A stretch of 64,000 bases of DNA, from the IMG/VR virus record IMGVR_UViG_3300031853_000038, positions 601 to 64,600 of that record; one strand, 5' to 3'. Position numbers and translations under genes: made by a program. The notes beneath the pieces were generated by a model. It ran no database searches. It was not told the origin of the DNA and was given only the letters and a program-made list of their open reading frames with translations. Shown piece after piece: positions 7,638-55,299 of the stretch (its first letter is position 1; every line of letters starts with the position of its first letter). The DNA comes from a virus. Taxonomy: Duplodnaviria > Caudoviricetes.

Positions 7638-9368
7638 TTAAAATCCGTATTCTCCATCTAAAACCTCATAAGCATCTATAAATAATTGTGGAGTGGTTCT
7701 ATTCCCCCACGTATTTATATTTGCGTGACCAACTATATTTAATTTTATATCTCCATTGTATTCAGATAGTTCTTGAATTAAATCTTTTGCAAAAAATTTA
7801 ATATAAGTAACTCCAAATTTTTCAATCTTTAAAGTATCTTTTCTAGCTCCAATAACTTGGATTTCTTGCGGTGTCACATTTATATCTTTTATAAAAATTT
7901 TGTCCTCTGGACAATTCTGCCCCCAGACTTCAGGATATTTGCCAATATCGAAAATTATGTCTTTTACATCTTCATCAGCTGCACTTCTAATAAAATTAAC
8001 ATCATAATAGGCTTCACCAAAATCTATATCTACCAATTCTTCATTGGCATATTCATTCACACGATCTAATGCCTCTTCTCTAAACGAGGTGCCTGCCGCG
8101 TTCGCGTGGCCACTGACGTATTCAAACAACCCGCTATCAGTTAAAAATTGCTTAAAATTAGTTAATGGAGAATTGTTAACTCCCCTCATACTTCCACGAA
8201 AATACCCTTCATCGTTTAATCTAACTATAATAGTTGGTTTCTTAAATTTAGCACTTAATCTCATACAAAGTAATCCATTAATCTCAGAAGGAAAATCATC
8301 ATCGTCTTCTAGAGGAATAATTAGAATCTTATTTTCCAATAATCCTAACTTATGAATACGCATTTCTAGTTTTTCGGTATTGGTTTCTAATAATTTATTC
8401 TGTCGATTGCGTGCATTGGTACATTCGCGTGCACTTTCAATGGATACTTTTTCCATAGTCCCTTTTGCACCGCGTTTATTACAAGGAACCATTCTATCTC
8501 CATCTATAAATGCAAGAAACATTCTTTCTTTTTCTTCCTGAGTACCAACTCTAATCATAGCATTAATTAAAGGAACGATATAAAAAGCTACTGTTGTTGG
8601 ATTAACTACACTTCCCATAGAATAATCTTGTTTTTCAACTAGTGCCTTAAAAAACTTATTCTTAATATTATTAAAACCTGTTTTCATAAAATATCGGTTC
8701 TCTAATTCTAAGACACTGCCCATATCTCCACAAATACCAAGCGCGGCAAGGTCAATTAAATCTTCTACATAATTTGTTCCGTTAATCCGGTCTAAATATC
8801 TACAGAACTGATAGGTAACCCCAGCTCCTGTTAACTCCTTATTTTTATAATCAGGAGAGATTTGATTATTTACAACAAAAGCAGAATTACTTATTTCTAT
8901 ATCTAATTCGTGGTGGTCTAATACTAAAGTACAACAACCTTTTTCTTTATAAATTTTTTCGTGATACTCATAATCATTACTACTTGAATCTGGACACACC
9001 ACTAAACAATAATCTTTATCACTTTCTATAATTTCTTCCCACATATCTTCAAGACCGTGCTGCTTTTTTGTATGAAGAAAATAATCTATTTCTGTTTCAG
9101 GATATAGTCGTTTAGTATATATATAAAAAATTGCGGCTGAAGTAAAACCATCACAATCACTATCAGCAACAAGTGCGATTGGTTTACCTGTATCTAAAGC
9201 CATTTTATAAGCAGTTGCGGCAGGACTTATATTTTTAAATAATCTCGGATCAGATAATAAATCCTCTGTTGGATTTAAAAATTCATCTATATCAACTACA
9301 CCTCTATAGTGCAGTAAATTTTCTAAATAATTTTCAGTATAATTTGGATTTACTAATTTAATTTGCAT
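7638..9368 (-). CDS. recJ: RecJ-like ssDNA exonuclease (DHH family)
   Basis: DSDCDG, LDHH, GHANAAG DHH/DHHA1 motifs. Confidence 0.9.
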   Translation of the reverse strand: MQIKLVNPNYTENYLENLLHYRGVVDIDEFLNPTEDLLSDPRLFKNISPAATAYKMALDTGKPIALVADSDCDGFTSAAIFYIYTKRLYPETEIDYFLHTKKQHGLEDMWEEIIESDKDYCLVVCPDSSSNDYEYHEKIYKEKGCCTLVLDHHELDIEISNSAFVVNNQISPDYKNKELTGAGVTYQFCRYLDRINGTNYVEDLIDLAALGICGDMGSVLELENRYFMKTGFNNIKNKFFKALVEKQDYSMGSVVNPTTVAFYIVPLINAMIRVGTQEEKERMFLAFIDGDRMVPCNKRGAKGTMEKVSIESARECTNARNRQNKLLETNTEKLEMRIHKLGLLENKILIIPLEDDDDFPSEINGLLCMRLSAKFKKPTIIVRLNDEGYFRGSMRGVNNSPLTNFKQFLTDSGLFEYVSGHANAAGTSFREEALDRVNEYANEELVDIDFGEAYYDVNFIRSAADEDVKDIIFDIGKYPEVWGQNCPEDKIFIKDINVTPQEIQVIGARKDTLKIEKFGVTYIKFFAKDLIQELSEYNGDIKLNIVGHANINTWGNRTTPQLFIDAYEVLDGEYGF

Positions 9369-22483: not shown

Positions 22484-22807
22484 ATGAAAAAATTAAAAAG
22501 TTCAAAACTAAAAGAATATAGTAAACGCTGTATTGCGGCAATCATCACATTATGGTTTGTTGTAGCTCTTTTTGGTATAGGTTTTAATATATATCAACTA
22601 ACTCATACAACAACACCAGAAGCAATAAATTTAGATGCTCTTTATGGGTATGTTGGTTTACCAATGACTGGCGGAATAGTTGGTTATCTAGTTAAATCTG
22701 CTATGGAGAATAAAGAAAAAATTAAAGGTAATATTACTTCTAATGAGGAAATATTATCACAAGTTTATACTTCAGAGGAGGAAACAGATAATGGCAGCGA
22801 TCAATAA
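22484..22807 (+). CDS. Two-TM membrane protein (holin/antiholin-like)
   Basis: Two hydrophobic segments, basic N-terminus, acidic C-terminus. Confidence 0.5.
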   Translation: MKKLKSSKLKEYSKRCIAAIITLWFVVALFGIGFNIYQLTHTTTPEAINLDALYGYVGLPMTGGIVGYLVKSAMENKEKIKGNITSNEEILSQVYTSEEETDNGSDQ

Positions 22808-24260
22808 ACAGGATTTAATAAATTATTTAAAAAAGAGTCCAGAAAATATAAATTTTAATATTTTTGGAGCTATGTTAGATGATTTTAGGAATACCTATGA
22901 AACTGATGAACAGATTGTAGATAAAATAAAAAATATTATAACTAATATTATTGAAGATGGTGATAGTATTAGTCCTGAAGATGATACTATTACTGAATTG
23001 GTGGATTTAATTACGGAATTACTACCTGAAAAAATGATTATTAAACCAGAAGGAACTTTAGAAATAACTCAAAATGGTGAGTACGACGTTATGAATAAAG
23101 CTGGGGTTAATGTAAATGTAGTAGGAATTGTAAACCCCGCTCTTGTGTTATGGGATTGGGAGGGAACAAAACTTGCCGAATATTCTGCCGAGGACGCACT
23201 TGCTTTAACCGAGTTACCTGTACCCAATACACTTCCTGCTTATGCCGGTGTAGATCATGAATTATTGTTGTTTCAGAAATGGAACTGGTCGCTGGCAAAC
23301 ATTAAAACATGGATTCAAAATCATGAAGGTGAAACACGGGACGTTGGTGCGATTTATACCACTACAGATGGACAAGACCACAATTTTTGGGGAAACCCGA
23401 GACTTGATACAGCAACAACTATTGCCATGCAGAAACGTGGAACGACTGGTATTGGGGAAGGTGCATTTAATAACTGTTATTCTCTCACTCAGATCAATAT
23501 TCCTGATAGTGTGACAAGTATTGGGGGCAATGCATTTTATAACTGCTATTCTCTCACTCAGATAAATATTCCCGATAGTGTGACAAGTATTGGAAACAAT
23601 GCGTTTAATAACTGTTTTTCTCTCACTCAGATAAATATACCGGATAGCGTAACGAGTATTGGAGACGATGTGTTTCAGTACTGCTATTCTCTCACTCAGA
23701 TAAATATTCCCGATAATGTGACAAGTATTGGAAACTATGCATTTAATAGCTGCTATTCTCTCACTCAGATAAATATTCCCGATAGTGTGACAAGTATTGG
23801 AAACTATGCATTTAATGGCTGTTTTTCTCTCACTCAGATAAATATTCCCGATAATGTGACAAGTATTGGGACTGGTGTATTTAATAGCTGCTATTCTCTC
23901 ACTCAGATAAATATTCCCGATAGCGTAACGAGTATTGGAGACGATGTGTTTCAGTCCTGCTATTCTCTCACTCAGATAAATATTCCCGATAATGTGACAA
24001 GTATTGGAAACTATGCATTTAATGACTGCAGATGCCTAAATGACATTTTATTAGAATCAAAACCGACGCTTTCAAACACAAACGCATTTAATGGTCTACC
24101 TACAAATTACCGTATTTACGTTCCACGTTCCGATTTGTCGTGGTTTGAAACGGCGACCAACTGGTCAACGATTTACACGCAGAATCACATCGTAGCAATT
24201 GAAGACTATATTGAATATCTCGAATCTCTCGGTTTTAATGTTGATAAATATAAGGAGTAA
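22791..24260 (+). CDS. BspA-type (LRR_5) leucine-rich repeat protein; putative receptor-binding/adhesin
   Basis: Tandem 23-aa CYSLTQINIPDSVTSIGxxxFxx repeats; RBS GAGGAGG before ATG 22791. Confidence 0.9.
   Translation: MAAINKQDLINYLKKSPENINFNIFGAMLDDFRNTYETDEQIVDKIKNIITNIIEDGDSISPEDDTITELVDLITELLPEKMIIKPEGTLEITQNGEYDVMNKAGVNVNVVGIVNPALVLWDWEGTKLAEYSAEDALALTELPVPNTLPAYAGVDHELLLFQKWNWSLANIKTWIQNHEGETRDVGAIYTTTDGQDHNFWGNPRLDTATTIAMQKRGTTGIGEGAFNNCYSLTQINIPDSVTSIGGNAFYNCYSLTQINIPDSVTSIGNNAFNNCFSLTQINIPDSVTSIGDDVFQYCYSLTQINIPDNVTSIGNYAFNSCYSLTQINIPDSVTSIGNYAFNGCFSLTQINIPDNVTSIGTGVFNSCYSLTQINIPDSVTSIGDDVFQSCYSLTQINIPDNVTSIGNYAFNDCRCLNDILLESKPTLSNTNAFNGLPTNYRIYVPRSDLSWFETATNWSTIYTQNHIVAIEDYIEYLESLGFNVDKYKE
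23475..24026 (+). repeat. Eight tandem 69-bp coding repeats (LRR units)
   Basis: Near-identical tg(c/t)t(a/t)ttctctcactcagat...gat(a)gtgtgacaagtattgg core with a short variable block in each unit. Confidence 0.95.
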
Positions 24261-24303
24261 TATTATGATTATACTCCATCTAATAATTAAGGAGGCTAAA
24301 TAA

Positions 24304-24531
24304 ATGAAAATAAATTGGAAAGAAAAACTTTCTTCTCGTAAATTTTGGGCTTTAGTGGCAGCACTTGTATTATCTGTTTTAGTCTTTTTTAATGCAAGCG
24401 ACAATACTGCCACTCAAGTAGGCTCAATTATAACTGCCTTTGGTAGCGTATGTGTTTATACTCTTGCAGAGGCTAGTGTAGACAAAAAACGGTTAGAAGA
24501 AAATTCAGAAACTTATTATGAAGAAGAATAA
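24304..24531 (+). CDS. Holin
   Basis: MKINWKEKLSSRKFWALVAAL..., two TM helices, typical Firmicutes phage holin N-terminus. Confidence 0.75.
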   Translation: MKINWKEKLSSRKFWALVAALVLSVLVFFNASDNTATQVGSIITAFGSVCVYTLAEASVDKKRLEENSETYYEEE

Positions 24532-24561
24532 TACAAAATATATATAAAGGAGGAATTATAT

Positions 24562-24744
24562 ATGCAATTAATACAAAAAGGAAATACTCCTAATACTCCA
24601 ATTGAAACTTGGATTTGTGATACAGAGCAAGAAGTTAGTTCAATTCCTTCTAAAGCACCAATCGGCTCAATAGCAATCGTTTTAACAGATAATGGTATGA
24701 TTATTAAGATGAAAAATAATGTTGGCGATTGGGTTGAGCTGTAA
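24562..24744 (+). CDS. Small tail-module protein (60 aa), paralog of 22297..22473
   Basis: Shared xxCDxxxxxxxI...G.lAiV...N..G.W.EL pattern; directly precedes DGR target 1. Confidence 0.65.
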   Translation: MQLIQKGNTPNTPIETWICDTEQEVSSIPSKAPIGSIAIVLTDNGMIIKMKNNVGDWVEL

Positions 24745-24756
24745 GGTGGTGAGATT

Positions 24757-26775
24757 ATGGATGTATCAACTCTTGCAGTTGCATTAGGATATACTAAAAA
24801 ACAGGTAGAGCAAGCAAAAAGAGAAGGATTTAGAGTTCAAATAGAACAAGATAGAAGTATATTAGAGACTACTGGTGAAGAGAAAATCTTTTATTTTCTA
24901 CCTAAAAATCCACAAAAAACTAAAGATGGATATGATGAATTTGTTTATACAAATAATAATTGGGAGCAGGTAGGAGTAACCGATATAGATTTAACCGACT
25001 ATGCTCAAAAAACATGGGTAAATGATAAATTTATAGAGAATGAAGAAATTTTTATTGGTGACGACGCCCCAGAGGGAAAACAAGTTCTTTGGATAGATGA
25101 AGATGCTGATAATATTAGATATGGTGCGGCATTAGATGTTACAGATTCTATATTAAGTTTAATAGATCAGAATGGTACTCTATTAAGTCAAGTAGATATA
25201 AGTGGTAGAATGGATATAGATGGTGGCACTGTAACTATTGATTATAATAGTTTTACATATGATGGTACAGCAAAAGAGCCTATTGTTACTAGTGTTGTAT
25301 TAGATAGTACTACATTAGTTTATGAAGAAGATTATACTATAAGTAGTTATTCTGCTACAAACGCTGGAAGTTATTCTTTAAAAATTTATGGAATTAATGA
25401 TTATAAAGGTATGATAGAAGTTAATTGGACAATAACTAAAGCTAATCCAACAATTACTGGACCATCAACTATAACCGTTGATACATTAAATGAAACAAAA
25501 GAAGTAGCTTTTACTTCTAATAGTGGCGGTTATTTTAGTTTTAGTGTTGAAAATACTTCTTTAGCTACAGTTTCAAACAATAGTGGTACTGTTTCTATAA
25601 CTTCTGTTGCAAAAGGAGAAACAAATCTTATTGTAAATGTAGCTGAAACTTTAAATTATAACTCCAAACAAGTACTAATTCCTTTAACAATTTTAGATGG
25701 TATGTGTTTCGGAGTAATCTGGAATTATGGCGATAGCTCTCCAGTATTAACTCGTCTTACTAGAGAAAATGATCCTAATCATATAGTAACTCATAGCCCA
25801 ACGATTGAACCAACCGCTTGTATTGGAACTACCGCTGGTCAGTCTTGGTTTGATGATTATATGCCTTGGGCTGGGATGGTTAGAAAAAATTATGTTGACG
25901 GACAAATAGTTAACTTCGTAGATTATTCAAATGGAGAAACTTACGTATACATACCACAATTTTGGAGTAAAATTATAAATAATACAGAAGAAAGTAAGAT
26001 GTATATTTATATATCTGCTGTTCAAGACTCTAGACTTACATTACACCCTGGTAGTGGAAAATATATGAGTCGTTATGAATGTAATAGTAACTTTTTATCT
26101 GCACCAGGCACTGCTCCAAAAGTTAATACTAACTTAGGTGGATTTAGAACTGGTATTACTGCAATTGACAATAAGCATTATCAGTATGATATACATACTT
26201 ATGCAGCTTTAGAACTATTATATATAGTAGAATTTGCACATTTAAATACACAAAGTAAAATTGGTGCAGGTATTACCTCTGGTGGTGCAGCTTTAACTAT
26301 TGGCGAAACGGATATTCTTACTTATCATACTGGTAGAGTGGATGGAACTGCTGATAATGTAAGTGCTGTACAATATAGATGGATAGAAAACTTATGGGGT
26401 AATGTATGGAATTGGGTTGATGGAATATTAATACAAGATGGATTAGTTTATATTTGTAATGATAGAGCAAATTATGCTAGTTCAATAACAAATGATTATG
26501 AGAGTACTGGTTTATATACACCAACTAATAGTAACTGGCATAAAACCGACCAAGATTATAATAATTGTTATTTAATTCCACTAACCACTGGTAGTTCTGA
26601 TTCTACTTACACTTGCGACTACTATTATTATGGCTCCGGGCTTCGTGGCTTGCATGTTGGTGGCAGCTATGGTAGCGGCTCTAATGCGGGCTTGTTCTCT
26701 TGGTTTGGTTACTATGCTCCAGGCGTTACCTTTGCTTATGTCGGTGGGCGCGCTGTGTTAGTAGATAACGAATAA
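24757..26775 (+). CDS. DGR target protein 1 (Ig-like domains + C-terminal C-type-lectin-like domain with VR); probable tail receptor-binding protein
   Basis: ENLWGNVWNWVDG CLec-type motif; VR at the extreme C-terminus. Confidence 0.9.
   Translation: MDVSTLAVALGYTKKQVEQAKREGFRVQIEQDRSILETTGEEKIFYFLPKNPQKTKDGYDEFVYTNNNWEQVGVTDIDLTDYAQKTWVNDKFIENEEIFIGDDAPEGKQVLWIDEDADNIRYGAALDVTDSILSLIDQNGTLLSQVDISGRMDIDGGTVTIDYNSFTYDGTAKEPIVTSVVLDSTTLVYEEDYTISSYSATNAGSYSLKIYGINDYKGMIEVNWTITKANPTITGPSTITVDTLNETKEVAFTSNSGGYFSFSVENTSLATVSNNSGTVSITSVAKGETNLIVNVAETLNYNSKQVLIPLTILDGMCFGVIWNYGDSSPVLTRLTRENDPNHIVTHSPTIEPTACIGTTAGQSWFDDYMPWAGMVRKNYVDGQIVNFVDYSNGETYVYIPQFWSKIINNTEESKMYIYISAVQDSRLTLHPGSGKYMSRYECNSNFLSAPGTAPKVNTNLGGFRTGITAIDNKHYQYDIHTYAALELLYIVEFAHLNTQSKIGAGITSGGAALTIGETDILTYHTGRVDGTADNVSAVQYRWIENLWGNVWNWVDGILIQDGLVYICNDRANYASSITNDYESTGLYTPTNSNWHKTDQDYNNCYLIPLTTGSSDSTYTCDYYYYGSGLRGLHVGGSYGSGSNAGLFSWFGYYAPGVTFAYVGGRAVLVDNE
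26629..26760 (+). repeat. DGR variable repeat VR1
   Basis: 132 nt; 24 mismatches to TR, all at TR adenines. Confidence 0.97.
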
Positions 26776-26789
26776 TTTAATTTTGTTTT

Positions 26790-26810
26790 TAAGCACTTAA
26801 TCTCAGTGCT
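26790..26810 (+). other. Hairpin downstream of VR1 (DGR target-recognition hairpin candidate)
   Basis: AAGCACT-taatctc-AGTGCTT about 30 nt after the IMH region. Confidence 0.45.
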
Positions 26811-26839
26811 TTATATATAAAGGTTCTTTTATAGGTAAT

Positions 26840-26971
26840 TATAGCTCCGGGCTTCGTAGCTTGAATGTTGGTAGCAACTATAGTAACAGCTCTAATGCAG
26901 GATTGTTCTATTGGAATGGTAACAATGATCCAGGCAATACCAATGCTAATATCGGTGAGCACGCTGTGTTA
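26840..26971 (+). repeat. DGR template repeat (TR)
   Basis: AAC/AAT/AGC-rich copy of both VRs, immediately upstream of the RT; ends GCTGTGTTA then diverges (IMH* ATTT versus IMH GTAG). Confidence 0.97.
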
Positions 26972-27107
26972 ATTTATTCGCGCATACTTATCTATATTAG
27001 AGCCGTACCTCTTGGTAAAAACTGCGGTCGCGACGGAATTAGTGTAGGTTTTTAGAAATTCGAAAGTTCTAGACTGCCTTTGAGATTAACACATTCAGGA
27101 GGTAAGT

Positions 27108-28187
27108 ATGTCTAAGAAAATTGGATATATTTATAATAAGATGCTTACTAAAGAAGCTATTGAAAGTGCTTTAATACGAGCATCTAAACATAAAAAGAAA
27201 AGACGACAAGTGCGTAAGGCATTAGAAAATAAAGAACAAACTATTAAAGATATACAGAAAATTTTATTAGATGAAAGTTTTGTTCCACAAGCGCCTTTTG
27301 AAAAAACCATTTGGGATACTTCTAGTGGAAAAGAAAGACACGTAGCTTATGTACGTTTCTTCCCAGATGCAATAATACACACACTTATCGTAGAAAGATT
27401 AGAAGAAATTTTTAGCCCGCGGTTTGATCCTCATAGTTGCTCTGCCATTCCTAAACGAGGTGGTGCCGCGGCAAAGAAATATGTAGAGAAAGCAATACAA
27501 GAAGATCCAGAACATACAAAATATTGTTTAAAACTAGATATTTCAAAATACTTCCAAAGTATTGATAAAGATGTATTGATGAAACAATTACATCACATTA
27601 TAAAAGACAAACGTTTTTTAAAAATATGTAGTGATATTATTAACAGTTATATAGAAAATCCAGAACAACCCGAAAAAGGAATAGCTATTGGCTTCTTTCC
27701 ATCTCAATGGTTTGGGAATTCTTATTTAACTGATTTAGATAGATATATTCGTACTTTAAAAGGAGTACATTATTATTGCAGATATATGGATGATATGGTT
27801 TTATTTAGTGACAATAAAGAAGATTTACATCAAGCTAAAGAATTAATAGAAAATTTTTTGAATAGTTTTTTAAAACTAAAATTAAAATCAAATTATCAAC
27901 TTTTTCCAATAGATAAAAGACCACTGGATTTTGTTGGTTATATATTTTATAGAGAATATATTATTTTACGTCGGAAAACCGCAAATAAAACAATAAAACA
28001 AAGTAGACGCATTTATAAAATGCAAAAAAATAATAATCCTATTGACTTCCATAACGCTAGTGGATTTTTATCTCGTTCTGGACAGTGTAAACATTTTAAT
28101 AGTAGATTATTTAGTAAACGTTATGTTAATAATATAAATTTAGAAAATTTAAAAGGAGTGGTAAAAAATGAAGGCTTGCGCAAATGA
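27108..28187 (+). CDS. DGR reverse transcriptase
   Basis: KLDISKYFQSID, GIAIGFFPSQWFGNSYL (DGR-type SQ), YMDD, LDFVGY; no maturase/endonuclease domain. Confidence 0.97.
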   Translation: MSKKIGYIYNKMLTKEAIESALIRASKHKKKRRQVRKALENKEQTIKDIQKILLDESFVPQAPFEKTIWDTSSGKERHVAYVRFFPDAIIHTLIVERLEEIFSPRFDPHSCSAIPKRGGAAAKKYVEKAIQEDPEHTKYCLKLDISKYFQSIDKDVLMKQLHHIIKDKRFLKICSDIINSYIENPEQPEKGIAIGFFPSQWFGNSYLTDLDRYIRTLKGVHYYCRYMDDMVLFSDNKEDLHQAKELIENFLNSFLKLKLKSNYQLFPIDKRPLDFVGYIFYREYIILRRKTANKTIKQSRRIYKMQKNNNPIDFHNASGFLSRSGQCKHFNSRLFSKRYVNNINLENLKGVVKNEGLRK

Positions 28188-37177: not shown

Positions 37178-38680
37178 ATGAATTTTAGTGAAGTTATAAA
37201 AGAAAATGCAACAAGAAAGTACACCGAAAATGGTGCGAGAGCTTATAACACAACAGGCGACAAGTTACTTGACTTGTTTTCAACTGTTGGTTCATTAAGA
37301 ACTCGCTCAGAAGAGGAAATAAGAGAGAAGTACAGATTGGCTTTCAATGAAGATCAGCTGCTTGCTACAAAATTACTATTCTATACAGGTAATATCCGTG
37401 GTGGTCTTGGCGAGAGAAGAACTTTCAGAATTTGTCTGAAGTGGCTTGCACAGGAGCATCCTGAGATTGCGGTAAAGAACATTCCTTTGGTTGCGGCGTT
37501 TAACCGTTGGGACTCACTTTTTGAGCTTATCGGCACTGATGTAGAAAACGCAATGTGGGCATATATTGCTGAAACTTTTGCAAATGATATTTCAAATCTT
37601 ACGGTGGCGAAAGTTACAAGAGCAGAGCCTCACATTTCTTTGCTTGCGAAGTGGCTTCCTTCAGAGAACGCTTCTTCAAAGAAGACTCGTAAACTTGCAA
37701 AAACTGTAATTAATAAACTTAGACTATCTCCTAAGCAGTATCGTCAAATTCTTTCTGCACTTCGCGCGCAGCTCAAAGTTGTAGAAAAGAGTATGAGTGC
37801 AAGGGAGTGGGATCAAATTGTTTACAGCGGAGTTCCTTCTTACGCTATGAAGAACTACAGAAACGCTTTTGAGCGTCATGACTCAGAACGTTTCAAGGAA
37901 TTTATTGGTGCGGTAAAGAAGGGAGAAAAGAAGATTAATGCTTCTACACTTTTCCCTTACGACCTTATTCACCAATATACAAGTTGCTCAAGCTGGGATT
38001 TCAATGTAGCAAACTACGATGAAGTTCTGGAGCAGCAATGGAAGGCTCTTCCTAATTACGTAGATGAAGGTACTGAAGTACTTGTAATGGCAGATACGTC
38101 TGGCTCAATGTTCTACGGAGATACTCGTCCTATGGAAACTTCTGTAGGTTTGGCTATTTACTTCGCACAACGTAATAAAGGAATGTATCACAATACATTT
38201 ATGACATTCAGTAGCACTCCTGCTTACTACTCAATCGATGAAGGAGCTTCTTTGAGAGATTGTATCCGGAAGGTAAGCCGTGGTCCTTGGACAGGTTCAA
38301 CAAACCTTACTGGGGCTATGAGAAAGATTCTCCACGACGCAGTTAGCAACTCTGTAGCTCCTGAGGAAATGCCTAAGGCGTTGGTAGTTATTTCTGATAT
38401 GGAAATCGATGCGGCGCAGCGTTGGGGCTCAGACAAGTGGGATTATGCAGATGCTCTTGCAGAGGAGTTCGAGAGAGCGGGCTACACAATGCCTAAGTTG
38501 ATTTTCTGGAATGTAAATTCAAGAAATGACACTTTCCTTACTAAGAACAAGAATACTCTTCTTGTTAGTGGACAGTCACCTTCTACTTTTAGAAGTGTGT
38601 TGAAGTCTATTAATAAGACAGCGTATGAAGCTATGCTGGAAGTATTGAATGATCCTATGTATGATTGCGTAAGAGTTTAA
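37178..38680 (+). CDS. DUF2828-type TROVE/Ro60-like protein with C-terminal vWA domain
   Basis: TENGARAYNTTGD.LLDLF, RGGLGERR, RWDSL, AKWLPSE, vWA DTSGSM, STNL, ISDMEID, FWNV; GC-richer codon usage than its neighbours. Confidence 0.8.
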   Translation: MNFSEVIKENATRKYTENGARAYNTTGDKLLDLFSTVGSLRTRSEEEIREKYRLAFNEDQLLATKLLFYTGNIRGGLGERRTFRICLKWLAQEHPEIAVKNIPLVAAFNRWDSLFELIGTDVENAMWAYIAETFANDISNLTVAKVTRAEPHISLLAKWLPSENASSKKTRKLAKTVINKLRLSPKQYRQILSALRAQLKVVEKSMSAREWDQIVYSGVPSYAMKNYRNAFERHDSERFKEFIGAVKKGEKKINASTLFPYDLIHQYTSCSSWDFNVANYDEVLEQQWKALPNYVDEGTEVLVMADTSGSMFYGDTRPMETSVGLAIYFAQRNKGMYHNTFMTFSSTPAYYSIDEGASLRDCIRKVSRGPWTGSTNLTGAMRKILHDAVSNSVAPEEMPKALVVISDMEIDAAQRWGSDKWDYADALAEEFERAGYTMPKLIFWNVNSRNDTFLTKNKNTLLVSGQSPSTFRSVLKSINKTAYEAMLEVLNDPMYDCVRV

Positions 38681-44936: not shown

Positions 44937-45835
44937 TTTCTGGTAGAAAATTTTCAGTTTTAACTTAAAACTTTATATCCAATTATTATTTTTCTTACTT
45001 ATATATGAAAATAATAAGAGGTGGTTTTATGAAAAAATGGGAAAATTTTTCTAAGGAAGAATTAGAACAATTTGTAAAAAACAGTTATTCCTACGCTGAA
45101 GTTTGTAAGCAATGTGGTTATTCACCAACTGGTGGTAGCTCAGTCAAATCTATAAAAGAAATGATTGAACATTATCATTTTGATATATCACACTTTACAA
45201 AACAAAGTTGGAATAAGAATAATTTTGATTATTCTCGTTTTAGAAAAGGAAACAATATTAAAAGGGGTGAAGCGGCTAAGGCGCTAACCTTTTTAAGAGG
45301 ACACCGATGTGAGAATTGTAACAATCAAGAATGGTTAGGTCAAAAAATACCACTTGAAATACACCACATTGACGGAGATAATCAAAATAATGAAATGGAT
45401 AATTTGCAACTTTTATGTCCAAATTGTCACGCTTTAACTGAAAATTGGCGTGGAAAAAATATTAATCAAGGTATTGAGAAAGTATCTGATGAAGATTTTG
45501 TTAATGCGTTAAAAAATTCACCCAATATTAGACAAGCATTGATTAAATTAGGTTTGTCACCAAAAGGTGGAAATTATGTTAGAGCAAATGAATTGATTGT
45601 AAAATATCAAATTGTTCATCTTCTGGAGCAGTAATCTTGGAAACTTATTACTGAATGATGGCTAATTCGGTGAATAACCAGAGAACGCCGAGCTAAATCA
45701 GTCAATTTAAATGGTTGTAAATGTGTAGAGACTATATACCATCTACCTAAGTCTTAAAATAAAAGATAAGGTAAAGACATAGTCCAGACTACAACGTAAT
45801 ATAATATTGCGGCTATAGTGATATAGAGTAGTAAG
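44937..45835 (+). mobile_element. Group I intron (899 nt) in the tRNA anticodon, encoding an HNH endonuclease
   Basis: P GCTAATTCGGTGAA, Q GAACGCCGAGCT, R TGTAGAGACTATA, S AAGACATAGTCC; ends in G. Confidence 0.9.
45029..45634 (+). CDS. Intron-encoded HNH homing endonuclease
   Basis: CENC...PLEIHHIDGDNQNNEMDNLQLLCPNCH; RBS GAGGTG before ATG 45029. Confidence 0.9.
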   Translation: MKKWENFSKEELEQFVKNSYSYAEVCKQCGYSPTGGSSVKSIKEMIEHYHFDISHFTKQSWNKNNFDYSRFRKGNNIKRGEAAKALTFLRGHRCENCNNQEWLGQKIPLEIHHIDGDNQNNEMDNLQLLCPNCHALTENWRGKNINQGIEKVSDEDFVNALKNSPNIRQALIKLGLSPKGGNYVRANELIVKYQIVHLLEQ

Positions 45836-46099
45836 AAAATCCATCAAGTGAGGGTTCGAATCCCTCTCGTCCTACCAAGTCATAGCAAAACTCGACTAGG
45901 TTAATAAAGATGCGCGGTTGACTGACCTTAAAGTTAAGAATTAAGAGTTATAACTCAAAAAAATGTAGTGAAATTTTTATGATTTTACTTACAAGTACCT
46001 TCTCAGACGAGAGTGTCTATGACATTACTGGCTTGGCGGAGTAGTAATTGAGGCACATAACAGTTGGTAGTAACCTGTTCGCAATATTAAAACTACATT

Positions 46100-46199
46100 T
46101 AGACACACACAGCAATCTTTTATATTTTATTTAGTTAAAAGATTTAGATGATGAACAAGAAAATAATATAGTTTATGGAAATTTTATTTCTTGTGTCTA
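46100..46199 (+). ncRNA. CAGCAA-stem RNA A (no tRNA module)
   Basis: TAGACAC-ACACAGCAAT...GTGTCTA terminal stem. Confidence 0.5.
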
Positions 46200-46282
46200 G
46201 TTAAAAAAGAGGTAAAATGAAAGTAAACATAATATTATTTTAAACACAAGCGGCGCCAACAAAAAGTCTTGGCGCTATATTT

Positions 46283-47980: not shown

Positions 47981-48244
47981 GTAGCGCAAGAGGATTCATA
48001 GTAGCCGGGAACGACAGCGCTATACAAGTGTCAAACGAATTACTATGAAGGGCTGGACGTAAGTCCCGGGTCCACCGAAGTAGGGGAGACTCCCCTTTTA
48101 ATAACGTTCTCAGTAGTTGTGCGCCGAGAACTTGGACAGCCGTAAAGGAAATCCCTGCAACACCAGCAAAGGGTTGGTATCGACATATGTGGCGCCCACT
48201 TTAAAAATTATACCTTTATGGTTTATAGAAAGGAATAAAATAAA

Positions 48245-48385: not shown

Positions 48386-48454
48386 TTTTTAGGCGCGCGC
48401 AGCGAGAGATAATAGTTCATATATAAAAACCTCTTTCTAAGCGTCTTGAAATAT

Positions 48455-48566
48455 AAAGCACAGGCAGCAAATACTTATCTTGTGGCGTAAAGGTTAGCGC
48501 ATCAACCTTAAAAAGTTGACGATAGCAGTTCGAATCTGCTCAAGATTGAAATATAGAAGGTGCTTT
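48455..48566 (+). ncRNA. CAGCAA-stem RNA B enclosing a tRNA-like body with an 8-nt anticodon loop
   Basis: AAAGCAC-AGGCAGCAAAT...GTGCTTT; D arm GCGT/GCGC, TCAAC-CTTAAAAA-GTTGA, AGCAG-TTCGAAT-CTGCT; no CCA. Confidence 0.65.
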
Positions 48567-48643
48567 GAATAAAAAATTTTTTGACTTTTTTATAAATTTT
48601 TAGTATAATATTTATAGAAAAATTAAGAAAGGAAAATAAATAT

Positions 48644-48715: not shown

Positions 48716-48770
48716 GAGACACATCTATATAGCCTCCACGTGGCGTGTCTTGGGTAATGCTAATATATAG
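48716..48770 (+). ncRNA. Theta (minimal HDV-like) ribozyme 1
   Basis: P1 GAGACAC/GTGTCTT (G1.U), P2 CTATATA/TATATAG, P3 GCC/GGC, L3 TCCACGT, GG, J4/2 GCTAA. Confidence 0.9.
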
Positions 48771-48782
48771 AATTAAATATAT

Positions 48783-48855: not shown

Positions 48856-48911
48856 GATTCTCGAGTACTATACTTCCACGTAGTGAGAATTGGGTAACGC
48901 TAGATTAGTAC
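48856..48911 (+). ncRNA. Theta (minimal HDV-like) ribozyme 2
   Basis: P1 GATTCTC/GAGAATT, P2 GTACTA/TAGTAC, P3 ACT/AGT, L3 TCCACGT, GG-GTAACG-CTAG. Confidence 0.9.
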
Positions 48912-48937
48912 ATTATTATAAAGAGGAGCTGAGTTTA

Positions 48938-49588
48938 TTGGCATACATTTATAAAATAACAAATAGAATTAATGGAAAGGTTTATATTGGTCAAACAAGT
49001 TTAACTATTAAACATCGTTTACAACAGCATATCAGAGATTCTAAACGTCAAACAATGGAAAATAGACCTTTATATAGAGCTTTTAAAAAATATGGGTATA
49101 ATAATTTTATTATAGAAGAAGTTGAACAATGTAAAAATGATGAAGTAAATGAAAAAGAAAAATATTGGATAAAATATTATGATTCTTATCATAATGGATA
49201 TAATGCTACACTTGGAGGAGAAGGAAGTATAACTATTGATCGTCAATTAGTAATAAATACTTATAAAAAATTACAAACTTGCAAAGCGGTAGCAGAAGAA
49301 TTAAAAATTAATTCAGGTACAGTTAGTGATATTCTTAAAAGTCAAGGAATAGTAGTTACTTCTTCACAAGAATTAAATAGAAAAAGAAACGGAAAACCAG
49401 TAAATATAATTGATGATAATGGAAATATTTTAATAACTTTTAATACATTAAAAGATGCAGCATTATACATTCAAAAAGAAAAAAATATTACAACAGATTG
49501 TAAAGGTATTGTCTCTCATATAAGAGATGTTTGTAATAAAAAAAGAAAAACTGCTTATTCACATAAATGGAAATGGAAAGACACTTAA
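48938..49588 (+). CDS. GIY-YIG homing endonuclease with NUMOD1-like C-terminus (likely TTG start at 48938)
   Basis: AYIYKITNRINGKVYIGQT; RBS GAGGAG; the longer track start overlaps ribozyme 2. Confidence 0.9.
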   Translation: MAYIYKITNRINGKVYIGQTSLTIKHRLQQHIRDSKRQTMENRPLYRAFKKYGYNNFIIEEVEQCKNDEVNEKEKYWIKYYDSYHNGYNATLGGEGSITIDRQLVINTYKKLQTCKAVAEELKINSGTVSDILKSQGIVVTSSQELNRKRNGKPVNIIDDNGNILITFNTLKDAALYIQKEKNITTDCKGIVSHIRDVCNKKRKTAYSHKWKWKDT

Positions 49589-52349: not shown

Positions 52350-52572
52350 CTGGCAAGGTGGCGCTTAACGGTCAAAGTTTGGCGGTATCTTTAAAAACCG
52401 CTATATAGGGTAAGGCAAATTTGTAAGTGTGATTCCTGATTAGGTATTTTATTATAATACCTAAAGGAAAATAGGGTTTTGCCAATATCGAATAGAAAGA
52501 GGTTGATTTCGATATAGTAGCTGGTCAGAGGAGAGTGCAGAAAGCTACTTAAAAACACGAGGTTACTCCATT

Positions 52573-52609
52573 TAGACACATACAGCAACTTATATTAATG
52601 TGGTGTTTA
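52573..52609 (+). ncRNA. CAGCAA-stem RNA C (minimal)
   Basis: TAGACAC-ATACAGCAAC...GTGTTTA. Confidence 0.5.
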
Positions 52610-52840
52610 GAAATGAAAAGAAAGGGAAAGAATATATGAAAAAAATATCAGAGATAGCAAAAGAAATGTCTTCCTTCATTGATTCTATAAGTTTATATCT
52701 TACAGATAGTGAGCTAGCCCAAGCTGCAATAATTGAACGAGATTTACATCATTATGCTAATCTTAACGAATAAAATTTTTGACTTTTTTATAAATTTTTA
52801 GTATAATATATATAGAAAAGTTAAGAAAGAAAAAGAAAAT

Positions 52841-52959
52841 AAAGCACAGACAGCAAAGATTATTTTATAACGATTTTGGAACTTGAAGTAGTGGGTTCGA
52901 GTCCCACCCCAAATGAATGGGTAGCTCAACAGGCAGAGCGCAAGTAGTTATAGTGCTTT
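52841..52959 (+). ncRNA. CAGCAA-stem RNA D: YrlA-like Y RNA with a circularly permuted tRNA domain
   Basis: AAAGCAC/GTGCTTT, TATAAC/GTTATA, ACTTG/CAAGT, then T arm GTGGG-TTCGAGT-CCCAC, loop-closed acceptor CCCA-AATGAA-TGGG, D arm TA-GCTC-AACAGGCA-GAGC. Confidence 0.75.
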
Positions 52960-53027
52960 GTGTAATTGGAAAAACAAAAATTCCAGCAATCAACAAATGT
53001 GTGGTTAGCTGACCTTAAAGCCTATTC

Positions 53028-53412: not shown

Positions 53413-53477
53413 AAGACACAGACAGCAATTATAATTTAGGAATAAACTTTTAATTTATAACCCTGAACTTGTGTCTT
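53413..53477 (+). ncRNA. CAGCAA-stem RNA E with an isolated Lys(TTT)-like anticodon stem-loop
   Basis: AAGACAC-AGACAGCAAT...AGG-ATAAA-CTTTTAA-TTTAT-CCT...GTGTCTT. Confidence 0.6.
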
Positions 53478-53493
53478 GTACCTTGATAATTTA

Positions 53494-54075
53494 ATAAGTG
53501 CTTTGACAATTTACAACCCAGTGCTAAAACAAGAATGCTCTGTTCTTGCTGGGGTACGACGAAATGGTCAGCGCAACGAAAGATGGATACATCTGGATAG
53601 CGGAATATCCAACTGTTTTAAAGTAGAGATACTTTAAAAGAAGGACGAACTCCAACACCAAAGTCGTAGCACACTTATTGTCGCAAGTAAAGGTAGGATG
53701 CGCATCGCTAGCGTAATAGACGCTTCAGATGGAGAAAAATCTTAGTTAGGTTCAGCTTGGTAACTGAACAAACCTAAGAAAAACCAATAAGCTAGTTTGC
53801 CGTGAAACGAAGAAATTCGTGTATAAGATGTGTATGCAACTCCGAGTAGGTAAAGGCAATGCAAATTGGATTTGAGGATTATAGTTAAAAATAATTTGCT
53901 GAATAGATGCTGAAAGGTACGGGTAGTCAATCCCGTATAGGTTAGTTTTTCGGAAACAGGGATAAGAAGTATAGAGGTCGCTACTTTATGCTCAGCCTTA
54001 TTCTTCCTATTGACTGAATATGCTTGAAGATAGTAAGATGTAGAATGAAGGTTCGTAAATTGTCAAAGCACTTAT
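53494..54075 (+). ncRNA. Large structured ncRNA, 582 nt (ROOL-like by size and context)
   Basis: Perfect 21-bp terminal inverted repeat ATAAGTGCTTTGACAATTTAC/GTAAATTGTCAAAGCACTTAT; many internal hairpins; no good ORF; inside a phage tRNA array. Confidence 0.65.
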
Positions 54076-54646: not shown

Positions 54647-54701
54647 GTCGTTCTAACTGTAAGCCTCCACGTGGCGAACGATGGGTAATGCTAATTACAG
54701 T
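54647..54701 (+). ncRNA. Theta (minimal HDV-like) ribozyme 4
   Basis: P1 GTCGTTC/GAACGAT (G1.U), P2 ACTGTAA/TTACAGT, P3 GCC/GGC, L3 TCCACGT, GG-GTAATG-CTAA. Confidence 0.92.
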
Positions 54702-54734
54702 AATAAAAAGAAAGAAAGAAAGAAGGAAGAAAAT

Positions 54735-55196: not shown

Positions 55197-55201
55197 ATTA
55201 T

Positions 55202-55292
55202 AAGGCTCACACAGCAAAGATTTTTTATGGTTTAAATGATACTCTGCAAAAGTGTTGTGAAAAGGTTCGATTCCTTTAAAATTATGAGCCTT
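55202..55292 (+). ncRNA. CAGCAA-stem RNA G enclosing a degenerate tRNA-Cys(GCA)-like body
   Basis: AAGGCTCA-CACAGCAAA...TGAGCCTT; ATACT-CTGCAAA-AGTGT; AAAGG-TTCGATT-CCTTT; AT-only acceptor-like stem, no CCA. Confidence 0.65.
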
Positions 55293-55299
55293 GATATAC

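Follow-up and report, generated by a model that had tools for sequence, protein, structure and literature searches.

The element at positions 52841-52959 of the window, a circularly permuted tRNA-like RNA of about 120 bases, is most likely a partner RNA of a Ro60-shaped protein that the phage itself encodes. The window, that is, the whole 64,000-nt stretch of DNA analysed here, derives from a 64.6-kb IMG/VR viral record that is estimated to be ~49% complete and that has no close phage relative in GenBank, with neither blastn of the element nor tblastn of a neighbouring 1138-aa protein returning a match. Probably, this is a Y-RNA-like phage RNA in which a terminal stem and bulge—the handle—dock on a Ro60-like ring, while a tRNA elbow engages a host factor. 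Three observations lead to this reading: the handle sits where the Ro60-binding helix and motif sit in Y RNAs, the proposed partner is predicted to share the ring and von Willebrand factor A (vWA) fold of Ro60, and the genes for the two are linked.

From 5′ to 3′, on the plus strand, as are all window features below, the RNA comprises a closing stem of 7-9 bp, an 18-nt bulge, an anticodon-type stem, a T arm, an acceptor-like hairpin, and a D arm. Every segment that the first-pass annotation had listed is present, base for base, where it had been placed within 52841-52959. The 5′ strand of the closing stem (52839-52847, with its core AAAGCAC at 52841-52847) pairs with the 3′ strand at 52953-52961 (GTGCTTT at 52953-52959, then G-T); the AAAGCAC/GTGCTTT core can thereby be extended to 9 bp with one G.U. 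The bulge that follows, AGACAGCAAAGATTATTT (52848-52865), is unpaired and carries the conserved CAGCAA (52851-52856), which throughout the family is found 1-4 nt past the closing stem. An extra stem, formed by TATAAC (52866-52871) and GTTATA (52947-52952), appears in the MFE fold and is not conserved in relatives.

Within the permuted body, the 3′ strand of the anticodon-type stem comes first (ACTTG, 52881-52885, tRNA positions 39-43) and pairs with the 5′ strand at the far end (CAAGT, 52941-52945, tRNA positions 27-31). Between them lie the 5-nt variable region AAGTA (52886-52890); a T arm, GTGGG-TTCGAGT-CCCAC (52891-52907), with 5 bp and the loop TTCGAGT; the acceptor-like hairpin CCCA-AATGAA-TGGG (52908-52921), with 4 bp and a 6-nt loop; and a segment at 52922-52940 comprising U8-A9 (TA, 52922-52923), the D arm GCTC-AACAGGCA-GAGC (52924-52939), and G26 (52940). 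The T arm and the D-arm segment are recovered both by the YrlA model and by a model built from relatives, the variable region was assigned from its sequence and from covariation of position 48 in relatives, and the acceptor-like hairpin and the GTTATA strand were read directly. The segments are as long as in a class I tRNA, and the residues that form the elbow are present: U8, A14, G18G19, A21, G53:C61, T54-T55-C56, and A58. Where relatives keep the Levitt pair, the window element has A15/A48.

The order of a standard cloverleaf, with acceptor ends and an anticodon loop, is absent. That tRNA scanners would overlook such an RNA had been anticipated, and neither ARAGORN nor the Rfam tRNA model (RF00005), run on the window, called the element as a tRNA. 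The acceptor-like segment spans only 8-14 nt across the relatives and is therefore regarded as a closed stub rather than a chargeable end. The permuted body should thus fold into a tRNA elbow that lacks both a chargeable end and an anticodon, as its sequence would predict. Rejoining the parts gives a 4-bp closed stub and no anticodon loop, and a tRNA with a 7-bp acceptor stem is not possible; judged from the sequence, the element cannot mature into a decoding tRNA.

The proposed fold, at -28.4 kcal/mol, lies 2.3 above the MFE (-30.7), and the single-sequence fold z-score is weak (-1.9), so the case for the element rests on comparison with its relatives. Several structural identities for the handle were considered and rejected. 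By inspection, it contains no GA/AG tandem after a 3-nt linker, as a kink-turn would; a bulge-helix-bulge splice motif fits poorly, as the 3′ strand is continuous; and an internal pseudoknot was dropped because CAGCAA has no complement in the D, T, or acceptor loops.

The RNA lies behind a promoter of its own, as had been proposed from the TTGACT-17-TATAAT arrangement. The sequence at 52779-52807 matches the sigma-70 consensus at 11 of 12 positions and belongs to a 41-nt cassette (52779-52819; -35 TTGACT at 52779-52784, -10 TATAAT at 52802-52807, and a conserved AT-rich start region). This cassette, TTGACTTTTTTATAAA..TATAATATATATAGAAAA, occurs five times on the plus strand of the window (38971, 48581, 52779, 54479, and 60948), whereas shuffled sequences are expected to hold none; its copies precede both protein-coding and RNA genes and hence represent a genuine recurrent phage promoter.

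The surrounding region is a tRNA array, with 22 tRNA genes called by ARAGORN between 46.2 and 57.8 kb of the window. It also holds a ROOL RNA, a group I intron, a DUF3800-XI RNA, and sub-threshold matches to HDV-like ribozymes, and it encodes GIY-YIG and HNH endonucleases and metallophosphoesterases. The ROOL RNA is full length (53493-54073, +; Rfam RF03087, 324.7 bits) and lies between the handle RNA with a Lys-type loop, described below, and tRNA-Lys. The DUF3800-XI motif (48049-48095, +) scores 49.4 bits, above its cut-off. Matches to the F. prausnitzii HDV-like ribozyme at 48716-48772, 48856-48954, and 54647-54715 (+) reach 24-34 bits against a cut-off of 44 and start directly 3′ of tRNA-Met, tRNA-Asn, and tRNA-Ala, respectively. 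An HNH endonuclease ORF (45005-45634, +) overlaps the 5′ end of the group I intron match (45606-45805, 55.6 bits). Elsewhere in the window, a BspA-type leucine-rich-repeat protein (22743-24260) is encoded near a reverse transcriptase gene (27108-28187, +), and the two (22743-28187) may constitute a diversity-generating retroelement.

The element begins ~25 nt past the predicted transcription start and ends 66 nt short of tRNA-Asp. This placement is what would be expected if it were a cis-acting leader or processing element of the tRNA-Asp/tRNA-Ile/ROOL unit that, for example, lets RNase P or RNase Z enter at a tRNA-like structure and has no existence as a separate RNA. That explanation is improbable: members of the family occur in many positions, some follow a DUF2828 gene, end at a terminator of their own, and have no tRNA close by, and the closed acceptor stub would make a poor substrate for either RNase P or RNase Z.

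The handle is not confined to this RNA. Defined as a covarying closing stem of 7-10 bp, a linker of 0-4 nt, and an unpaired CAGCAA on the 5′ side—all of which the element has—it is common to at least five other RNAs of the window's tRNA array and to many uncultured and cultured phages. The six copies in the window lie at 46099-46200, 48454-48567, ~52571-52613, 52839-52961, 53413-53477, and 55201-55293. Five handles in the window have stems of at least 8 bp, where dinucleotide shuffles yield 0.15 and not one in 300 has as many, and CAGCAA occurs 10 times in the array where 2.4 occurrences are expected. The closing stems covary among the window paralogs (GCAC/GTGC, ACAC/GTGT, and GCTC/GAGC). A G lies directly 3′ of the handle's 3′ strand in all six window copies and in most copies from other phages. 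The 3′ junction of the family is A-rich before the closing stem and G/T after it; in the window element the G is kept, and the A-rich junction is replaced by GTTATA.

What the handles enclose differs from copy to copy: an elbow-only permuted tRNA, a whole tRNA, a Lys anticodon stem-loop, or an anticodon-like hairpin with a T arm. The handle scan identified the paralog at 46099-46200, which has an AT-rich payload, and that at 48454-48567, which encloses a complete tRNA whose anticodon loop has 8 nt (called by ARAGORN at 48475-48549 with the anticodon 'taaa'); instead of a frameshift suppressor, this may be a tRNA mounted on a handle. The same scan found the 65-nt paralog at 53413-53477, which carries a Lys(UUU)-type anticodon stem-loop with a 5-bp stem and the loop CTTTTAA. 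In the copy at 55201-55293, which bears the anticodon-like hairpin and T arm, the Rfam tRNA model scores 27.6 bits at 55219-55284.

Relatives of the element are found in other viruses. A pattern scan of IMG/VR for a T loop, 8-17 nt, and a D arm returned more than 118 loci, and requiring CAGCAA upstream left 20, all with the architecture of the window element. These ~20 handle loci with permuted tRNA bodies all fall within phage tRNA arrays, and an Rfam search of them found no family at its gathering score; one (L055), searched by blastn, had no match in GenBank. In their arrays there are additional copies of the handle, which carry different payloads derived from tRNAs. Two of these related jumbo-phage arrays also encode a tmRNA (L055 4162-4492 and L064 6897-7359).

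A MAFFT alignment of whole elements misaligned the D arm and the closing stems; for this reason, covariation was counted by a regular-expression parse of 15 permuted members, and a covariance model, R1, was built from the nine cleanly aligning members of other phages, the window element being excluded. Among the 15 parsed relatives, covariation is seen at four of the five pairs of the anticodon-type stem and at three pairs of the T stem. Position 15 of the D loop covaries with position 48 of the variable loop—a tertiary tRNA pair—as G15:C48 in 11 members and A15:U48 in 3; the window copy, with its two adenines, is the exception. R1 nevertheless recovers the element at 52851-52945 with 58.5 bits (E ~1e-13), the next match in the window scoring 19 bits.

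Such conservation bears on whether the element might be the debris of tRNA rearrangement, or else a permuted precursor from which, as in Cyanidioschyzon, a decoding tRNA is made. Permuted tRNA genes are known from red algae (Cyanidioschyzon merolae), and an array riddled with homing endonuclease genes (GIY-YIG, HNH) is a plausible place for rearrangement. Even so, this origin is extremely unlikely, for 15 phages conserve the architecture with covarying pairs, an independent model retrieves the element at the E value above, the acceptor segment of 8-14 nt has neither discriminator nor CCA, and there is no anticodon loop to rebuild.

The proposed protein partner is encoded at 37178-38680 (+). 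Its product, of 500 aa, contains DUF2828 and DUF7788 by Pfam, the latter a vWA domain with an invariant DxSxS MIDAS motif. The AlphaFold model (pLDDT 83.9, pTM 0.82) predicts a Ro60 fold: in Foldseek it matches Ro60 over nearly its full length, and the top 13 matches are all Ro60/TROVE, with E down to 5e-9. DUF2828 homologs occur in 708 GenBank phage records, where some are annotated as 'Ro-like RNA binding protein', and an atlas look-up returned DUF2828 clusters from viruses and plants only.

Handle RNAs and DUF2828 occur together, whereas classic YrlA-type RNAs occur with TROVE. Handle-type records have no TROVE, and DUF2828 was found in 13 of the 18 searched, including all eight genomes estimated to be at least 95% complete. 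The five records without DUF2828 comprise three fragments that are less than 10% complete and two records that bear TROVE (L069 and L125). Among classic YrlA-type viral records, TROVE is present in 15/17 and DUF2828 in 0/17. In 50 further records, DUF2828 was found only in two that have convincing handles in a sufficiently complete record; the remaining crude handle-scan matches among those 50 looked like chance. Chance matches of the crude scan in GC-rich coding DNA occur at L008, L022, L023, L033, L051, L076, L102, and L108; they look unlike true handles, and their records lack DUF2828.

In cultured phages, moreover, handles are found directly next to the gene. Listeria phage A511 has three tandem handle RNAs, the last ending 35 nt upstream of gp57, its DUF2828 gene. 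Mycobacteriophage Rumpelstiltskin has three in tandem just after its 'Ro-like RNA binding protein' gene, ending at a terminator, and the middle one is a permuted tRNA mimic. Handles likewise adjoin the DUF2828 gene in Staphylococcus SEP9, Campylobacter CP8, Enterococcus EF5, Bacillus PBC2, Salmonella Mushroom (Felix O1-like), and Synechococcus BUCT-ZZ01, and one of the PBC2 copies is a permuted mimic with the variant CAGCTA. The linkage spans phages of Actinobacteria, Firmicutes, Proteobacteria, and Cyanobacteria. For Mushroom (L142) and PBC2 (L146), the feature tables place the tRNAs opposite the DUF2828 strand, whereas ARAGORN assigns them to the strand of that gene, in the orientation of the handle RNAs. 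When 80 IMG/VR DUF2828 loci were taken protein first, 64 strict handles lay on the strand of the gene as against 10 on the other, and the distance to the gene was mostly no more than ~500 nt. In the window, the DUF2828 gene lies 14 kb from the element rather than adjacent to it, and its flanks contain no handle.

Part of this co-occurrence could stem from a shared context, as both handles and DUF2828 genes tend toward tRNA arrays; the tandem handles of SEP9 and Rumpelstiltskin, which lie beside the gene and away from tRNAs, argue against it. In phage Bas63, the Ro60-like gp130 is encoded just upstream of tRNA genes, and its deletion leads to sensitivity to the Ppl defence system (10.1101/2024.10.10.617714). 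The authors of that study surmised that there are Y RNAs among the neighbouring 'tRNAs', without identifying them (10.1101/2024.10.10.617714).

The distance of 14 kb, together with the location of the window's handle RNAs in a tRNA array, would suit a free-standing decoy, in which the handle does no more than stabilise the RNA or mark it for processing. No Ro60-like protein would then be needed for the tRNA parts, among them the elbow and the Lys loop at 53413, to titrate host nucleases that target tRNAs or host enzymes that bind them. The payloads are indeed parts of tRNAs, and CTTTTAA Lys(UUU)-type loops are mounted on handles both in the window and in five other phages (L031 6923, L123 382, L121 4928, L055 4571, and L021 2225). 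As tRNA-Lys is a known target of anticodon nucleases, a decoy role for the Lys-loop handle RNAs is worth considering. A decoy that works alone is possible but on balance unlikely: it accounts neither for the conservation of the handle sequence all the way from actinophages to cyanophages, nor for the strand-specific placement of handles beside the DUF2828 gene, nor for the presence of that gene in every complete handle genome. Decoying could also coexist with docking on a Ro60-like ring, as the job of the resulting ribonucleoprotein (RNP).

The relation of the element to YrlA was the central suggestion of the first-pass annotation. YrlA RNAs are defined by a tRNA-like T/acceptor/D domain, a Ro60-binding module with the motif GNCGAA(N)G, and a nearby gene for a TROVE-domain Ro60 (Chen et al. 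2014, PMC4201824). The permuted T-acceptor-D topology held up, as it matches the arrangement described by Chen and colleagues (PMC4201824) and as the Rfam YrlA model (RF02553), the search that had been suggested, aligns end to end, model positions 1-114 falling on window 52863-52970. At 34.5 bits, that alignment nevertheless falls well short of the gathering score (69), and it leaves the closing helices largely unpaired; a local search gives an E value of 5e-6. Sub-threshold matches to the YrlA model arise in 6 of 14 control genomes too, and the score alone consequently proves little. Neither GNCGAA(N)G nor CGAA is present in the element's bulge, which has CAGCAA instead, and the 64.6-kb record contains no TROVE gene. 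Among the three defining features, the element thus shares only the tRNA-like domain, and the identification stands for the topology and fails for a canonical YrlA.

With roughly half of the phage genome in hand (the record being ~49% complete), one might suppose that the element is after all a canonical YrlA that works with a TROVE-type Rsr from the host or from the missing half, and the full-length alignment with its E value would accord with this. Such an arrangement is nonetheless highly unlikely given the shortfall against the gathering score, the similar matches in control genomes, the absent GNCGAA/CGAA motif, and the absence of TROVE from eight of eight handle-type genomes that are at least 95% complete, when classic-type records almost always have it. 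R1, for its part, scores classic YrlA-type viral RNAs at 41-59 bits, as high as the handle type, and so failed as a discriminator between the two: they share a tRNA-like body and can be told apart only by handle and partner. The element is best described, as far as comparison of the RNAs suggests, as working like YrlA but belonging to a different, undescribed branch.

Classic viral YrlA-type RNAs carry GTTACTTC... upstream and mostly GYGYAGR-type motifs at the motif position. In a 35.6-kb complete virus with a TROVE gene (L069), a classic YrlA-type RNA at ~9177-9345 of the reverse strand has CAGCAA exactly where its relatives mostly have CGYAGR. CAGCAA is hence not strictly exclusive to the RNAs linked with DUF2828, and CAGCAA and CGYAGR may be positional variants of one Ro-binding element.

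The proposed mechanism of the Y-RNA-like element involves two modules. The first, the handle (a stem of 7-9 bp with its CAGCAA bulge), occupies the place that in known Y RNAs is taken by the CGAA bulge and the helix that binds Ro60, and it would dock on the phage's Ro60-shaped ring (DUF2828 and vWA, 37178-38680). In the second, the permuted body—anticodon-type stem, T arm, closed acceptor stub, and D arm—would form a tRNA elbow that, by analogy with YrlA, may recruit or sequester a host factor that recognises tRNA. Candidates for that factor are PNPase, RNase P, tRNA-modifying enzymes, and tRNA-targeting defence nucleases; PNPase is suggested by the Ro60/Rsr-Y RNA-PNPase complexes and by the Ro60-Yrl of phiLo (PMC12135203), which binds the host PNPase and dampens its activity (PMC12135203). 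The RNA would be transcribed from the promoter at 52779-52807, ahead of tRNA-Asp, and a cut by RNase P at the 5′ end of tRNA-Asp would then free it. We infer the binding of RNA to protein, the processing, and the identity of the host factor from these likenesses.

Ro60 and Y RNAs form an RNA-surveillance system that is conserved from bacteria to humans, and its phage versions are only beginning to be studied. The window element appears to belong to a second, apparently undescribed branch of this kind, with a different family of ring protein, a different handle, and swappable tRNA-derived cargo. A literature search found no paper that describes handle RNAs or pairs them with DUF2828, the five papers that it returned on DUF2828 are not concerned with RNA, and no Rfam family covers handle RNAs. 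Within phage tRNA arrays, their genes constitute a class overlooked by tRNA scanners and Rfam alike, and the RNAs themselves are concrete candidate partners for a protein that counters bacterial defence in a phage of the Felix O1 type.

Comparison with known systems sets the element apart from most other small RNAs that it resembles. The rnaC and rnaD RNAs of phage T4 are likewise small non-tRNA RNAs among phage tRNA genes, but the T4 sequence has no visible closing stem with a CAGCAA handle and no permuted T and D arms, and they were rejected as homologs. In the permuted tRNA genes of C. merolae, the 3′ part precedes the 5′ part, and the termini are joined by a flanking stem near the anticodon region. 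Both the order and the flanking stem are shared by the element, which differs in lacking a full acceptor stem, an anticodon loop, and a bulge-helix-bulge.

A more distant likeness is to the Class I RNAs of Dictyostelium (RF01414), which are 42-65 nt long and have a short covarying 5′-3′ stem of 6 bp, an 11-nt motif by the 5′ strand, and a variable remainder (PMC7919456). The conserved positions of that motif are T, C, C, A, and A at 3, 6, 9, 10, and 11 (Kjellin et al. 2021, PMC7919456), and the RNAs start with AAG, end with CUGU, and are reported to bind an RRM protein (PMC7919456). Handle RNAs share the covarying 5′-3′ stem and the unpaired motif by its 5′ strand; the Class I positions fit xxTxxCAGCAA, and many phage handles likewise start with AAG and end with CUGU. 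The window element has the stem and the ACAGCAA end of the motif at a length of ~120 nt, whereas Class I RNAs are eukaryotic, shorter, and RRM-bound. The RF01414 model gives two weak matches to the A511 handles (23.1 and 19.6 bits against a cut-off of 41.5) and none in the window, the 65-nt handle RNA at 53413-53477 included. The link is a lead rather than a finding, and common descent is not established. A broader proposal, speculative and rather unlikely, is that handle and DUF2828 ring form a platform that can be programmed through its payloads (elbow-only tRNA bodies, Lys anticodon loops, half tRNAs, and whole tRNAs). Each of these would deliver to the Ro60-like ring a different host enzyme or defence nuclease that recognises tRNA, so that it is blocked or the RNA damage it causes is dealt with, with the family extending to eukaryotes and Class I RNAs as its amoebal branch.

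The closest counterparts remain the YrlA-type Y RNAs (RF02553; PMC4201824), including Yrl1 and Yrl2 of Thermus phage phiLo (PMC12135203). In Y RNAs generally, the 5′-3′ stem flanks a bulge that bears the conserved motif (PMC4201824, PMC12135203), and in the phiLo study, Y RNA-like RNAs were recognised as a 5′-3′ stem flanking a CGAA bulge (PMC12135203). The element has the same two modules, namely a closing 5′-3′ stem with a motif-bearing bulge and a tRNA-like domain, the latter with the same order of T arm, acceptor-like hairpin, and D arm and, in the element's relatives, with covariation of the Levitt pair. Both kinds are encoded by phages that also encode a ring and vWA protein of Ro60 fold (predicted for DUF2828), and both often adjoin its gene. 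They differ in motif, CAGCAA in the element against GNCGAA(N)G/CGAA in YrlA, with the element below the Rfam cut-off, and in partner, the one proposed for the element being a DUF2828 and DUF7788 protein rather than Pfam TROVE, two families that are mutually exclusive in the records tested. They differ, finally, in what the handle is used for: that of the element carries many other payloads as well, and several copies of it are scattered through a single tRNA array.
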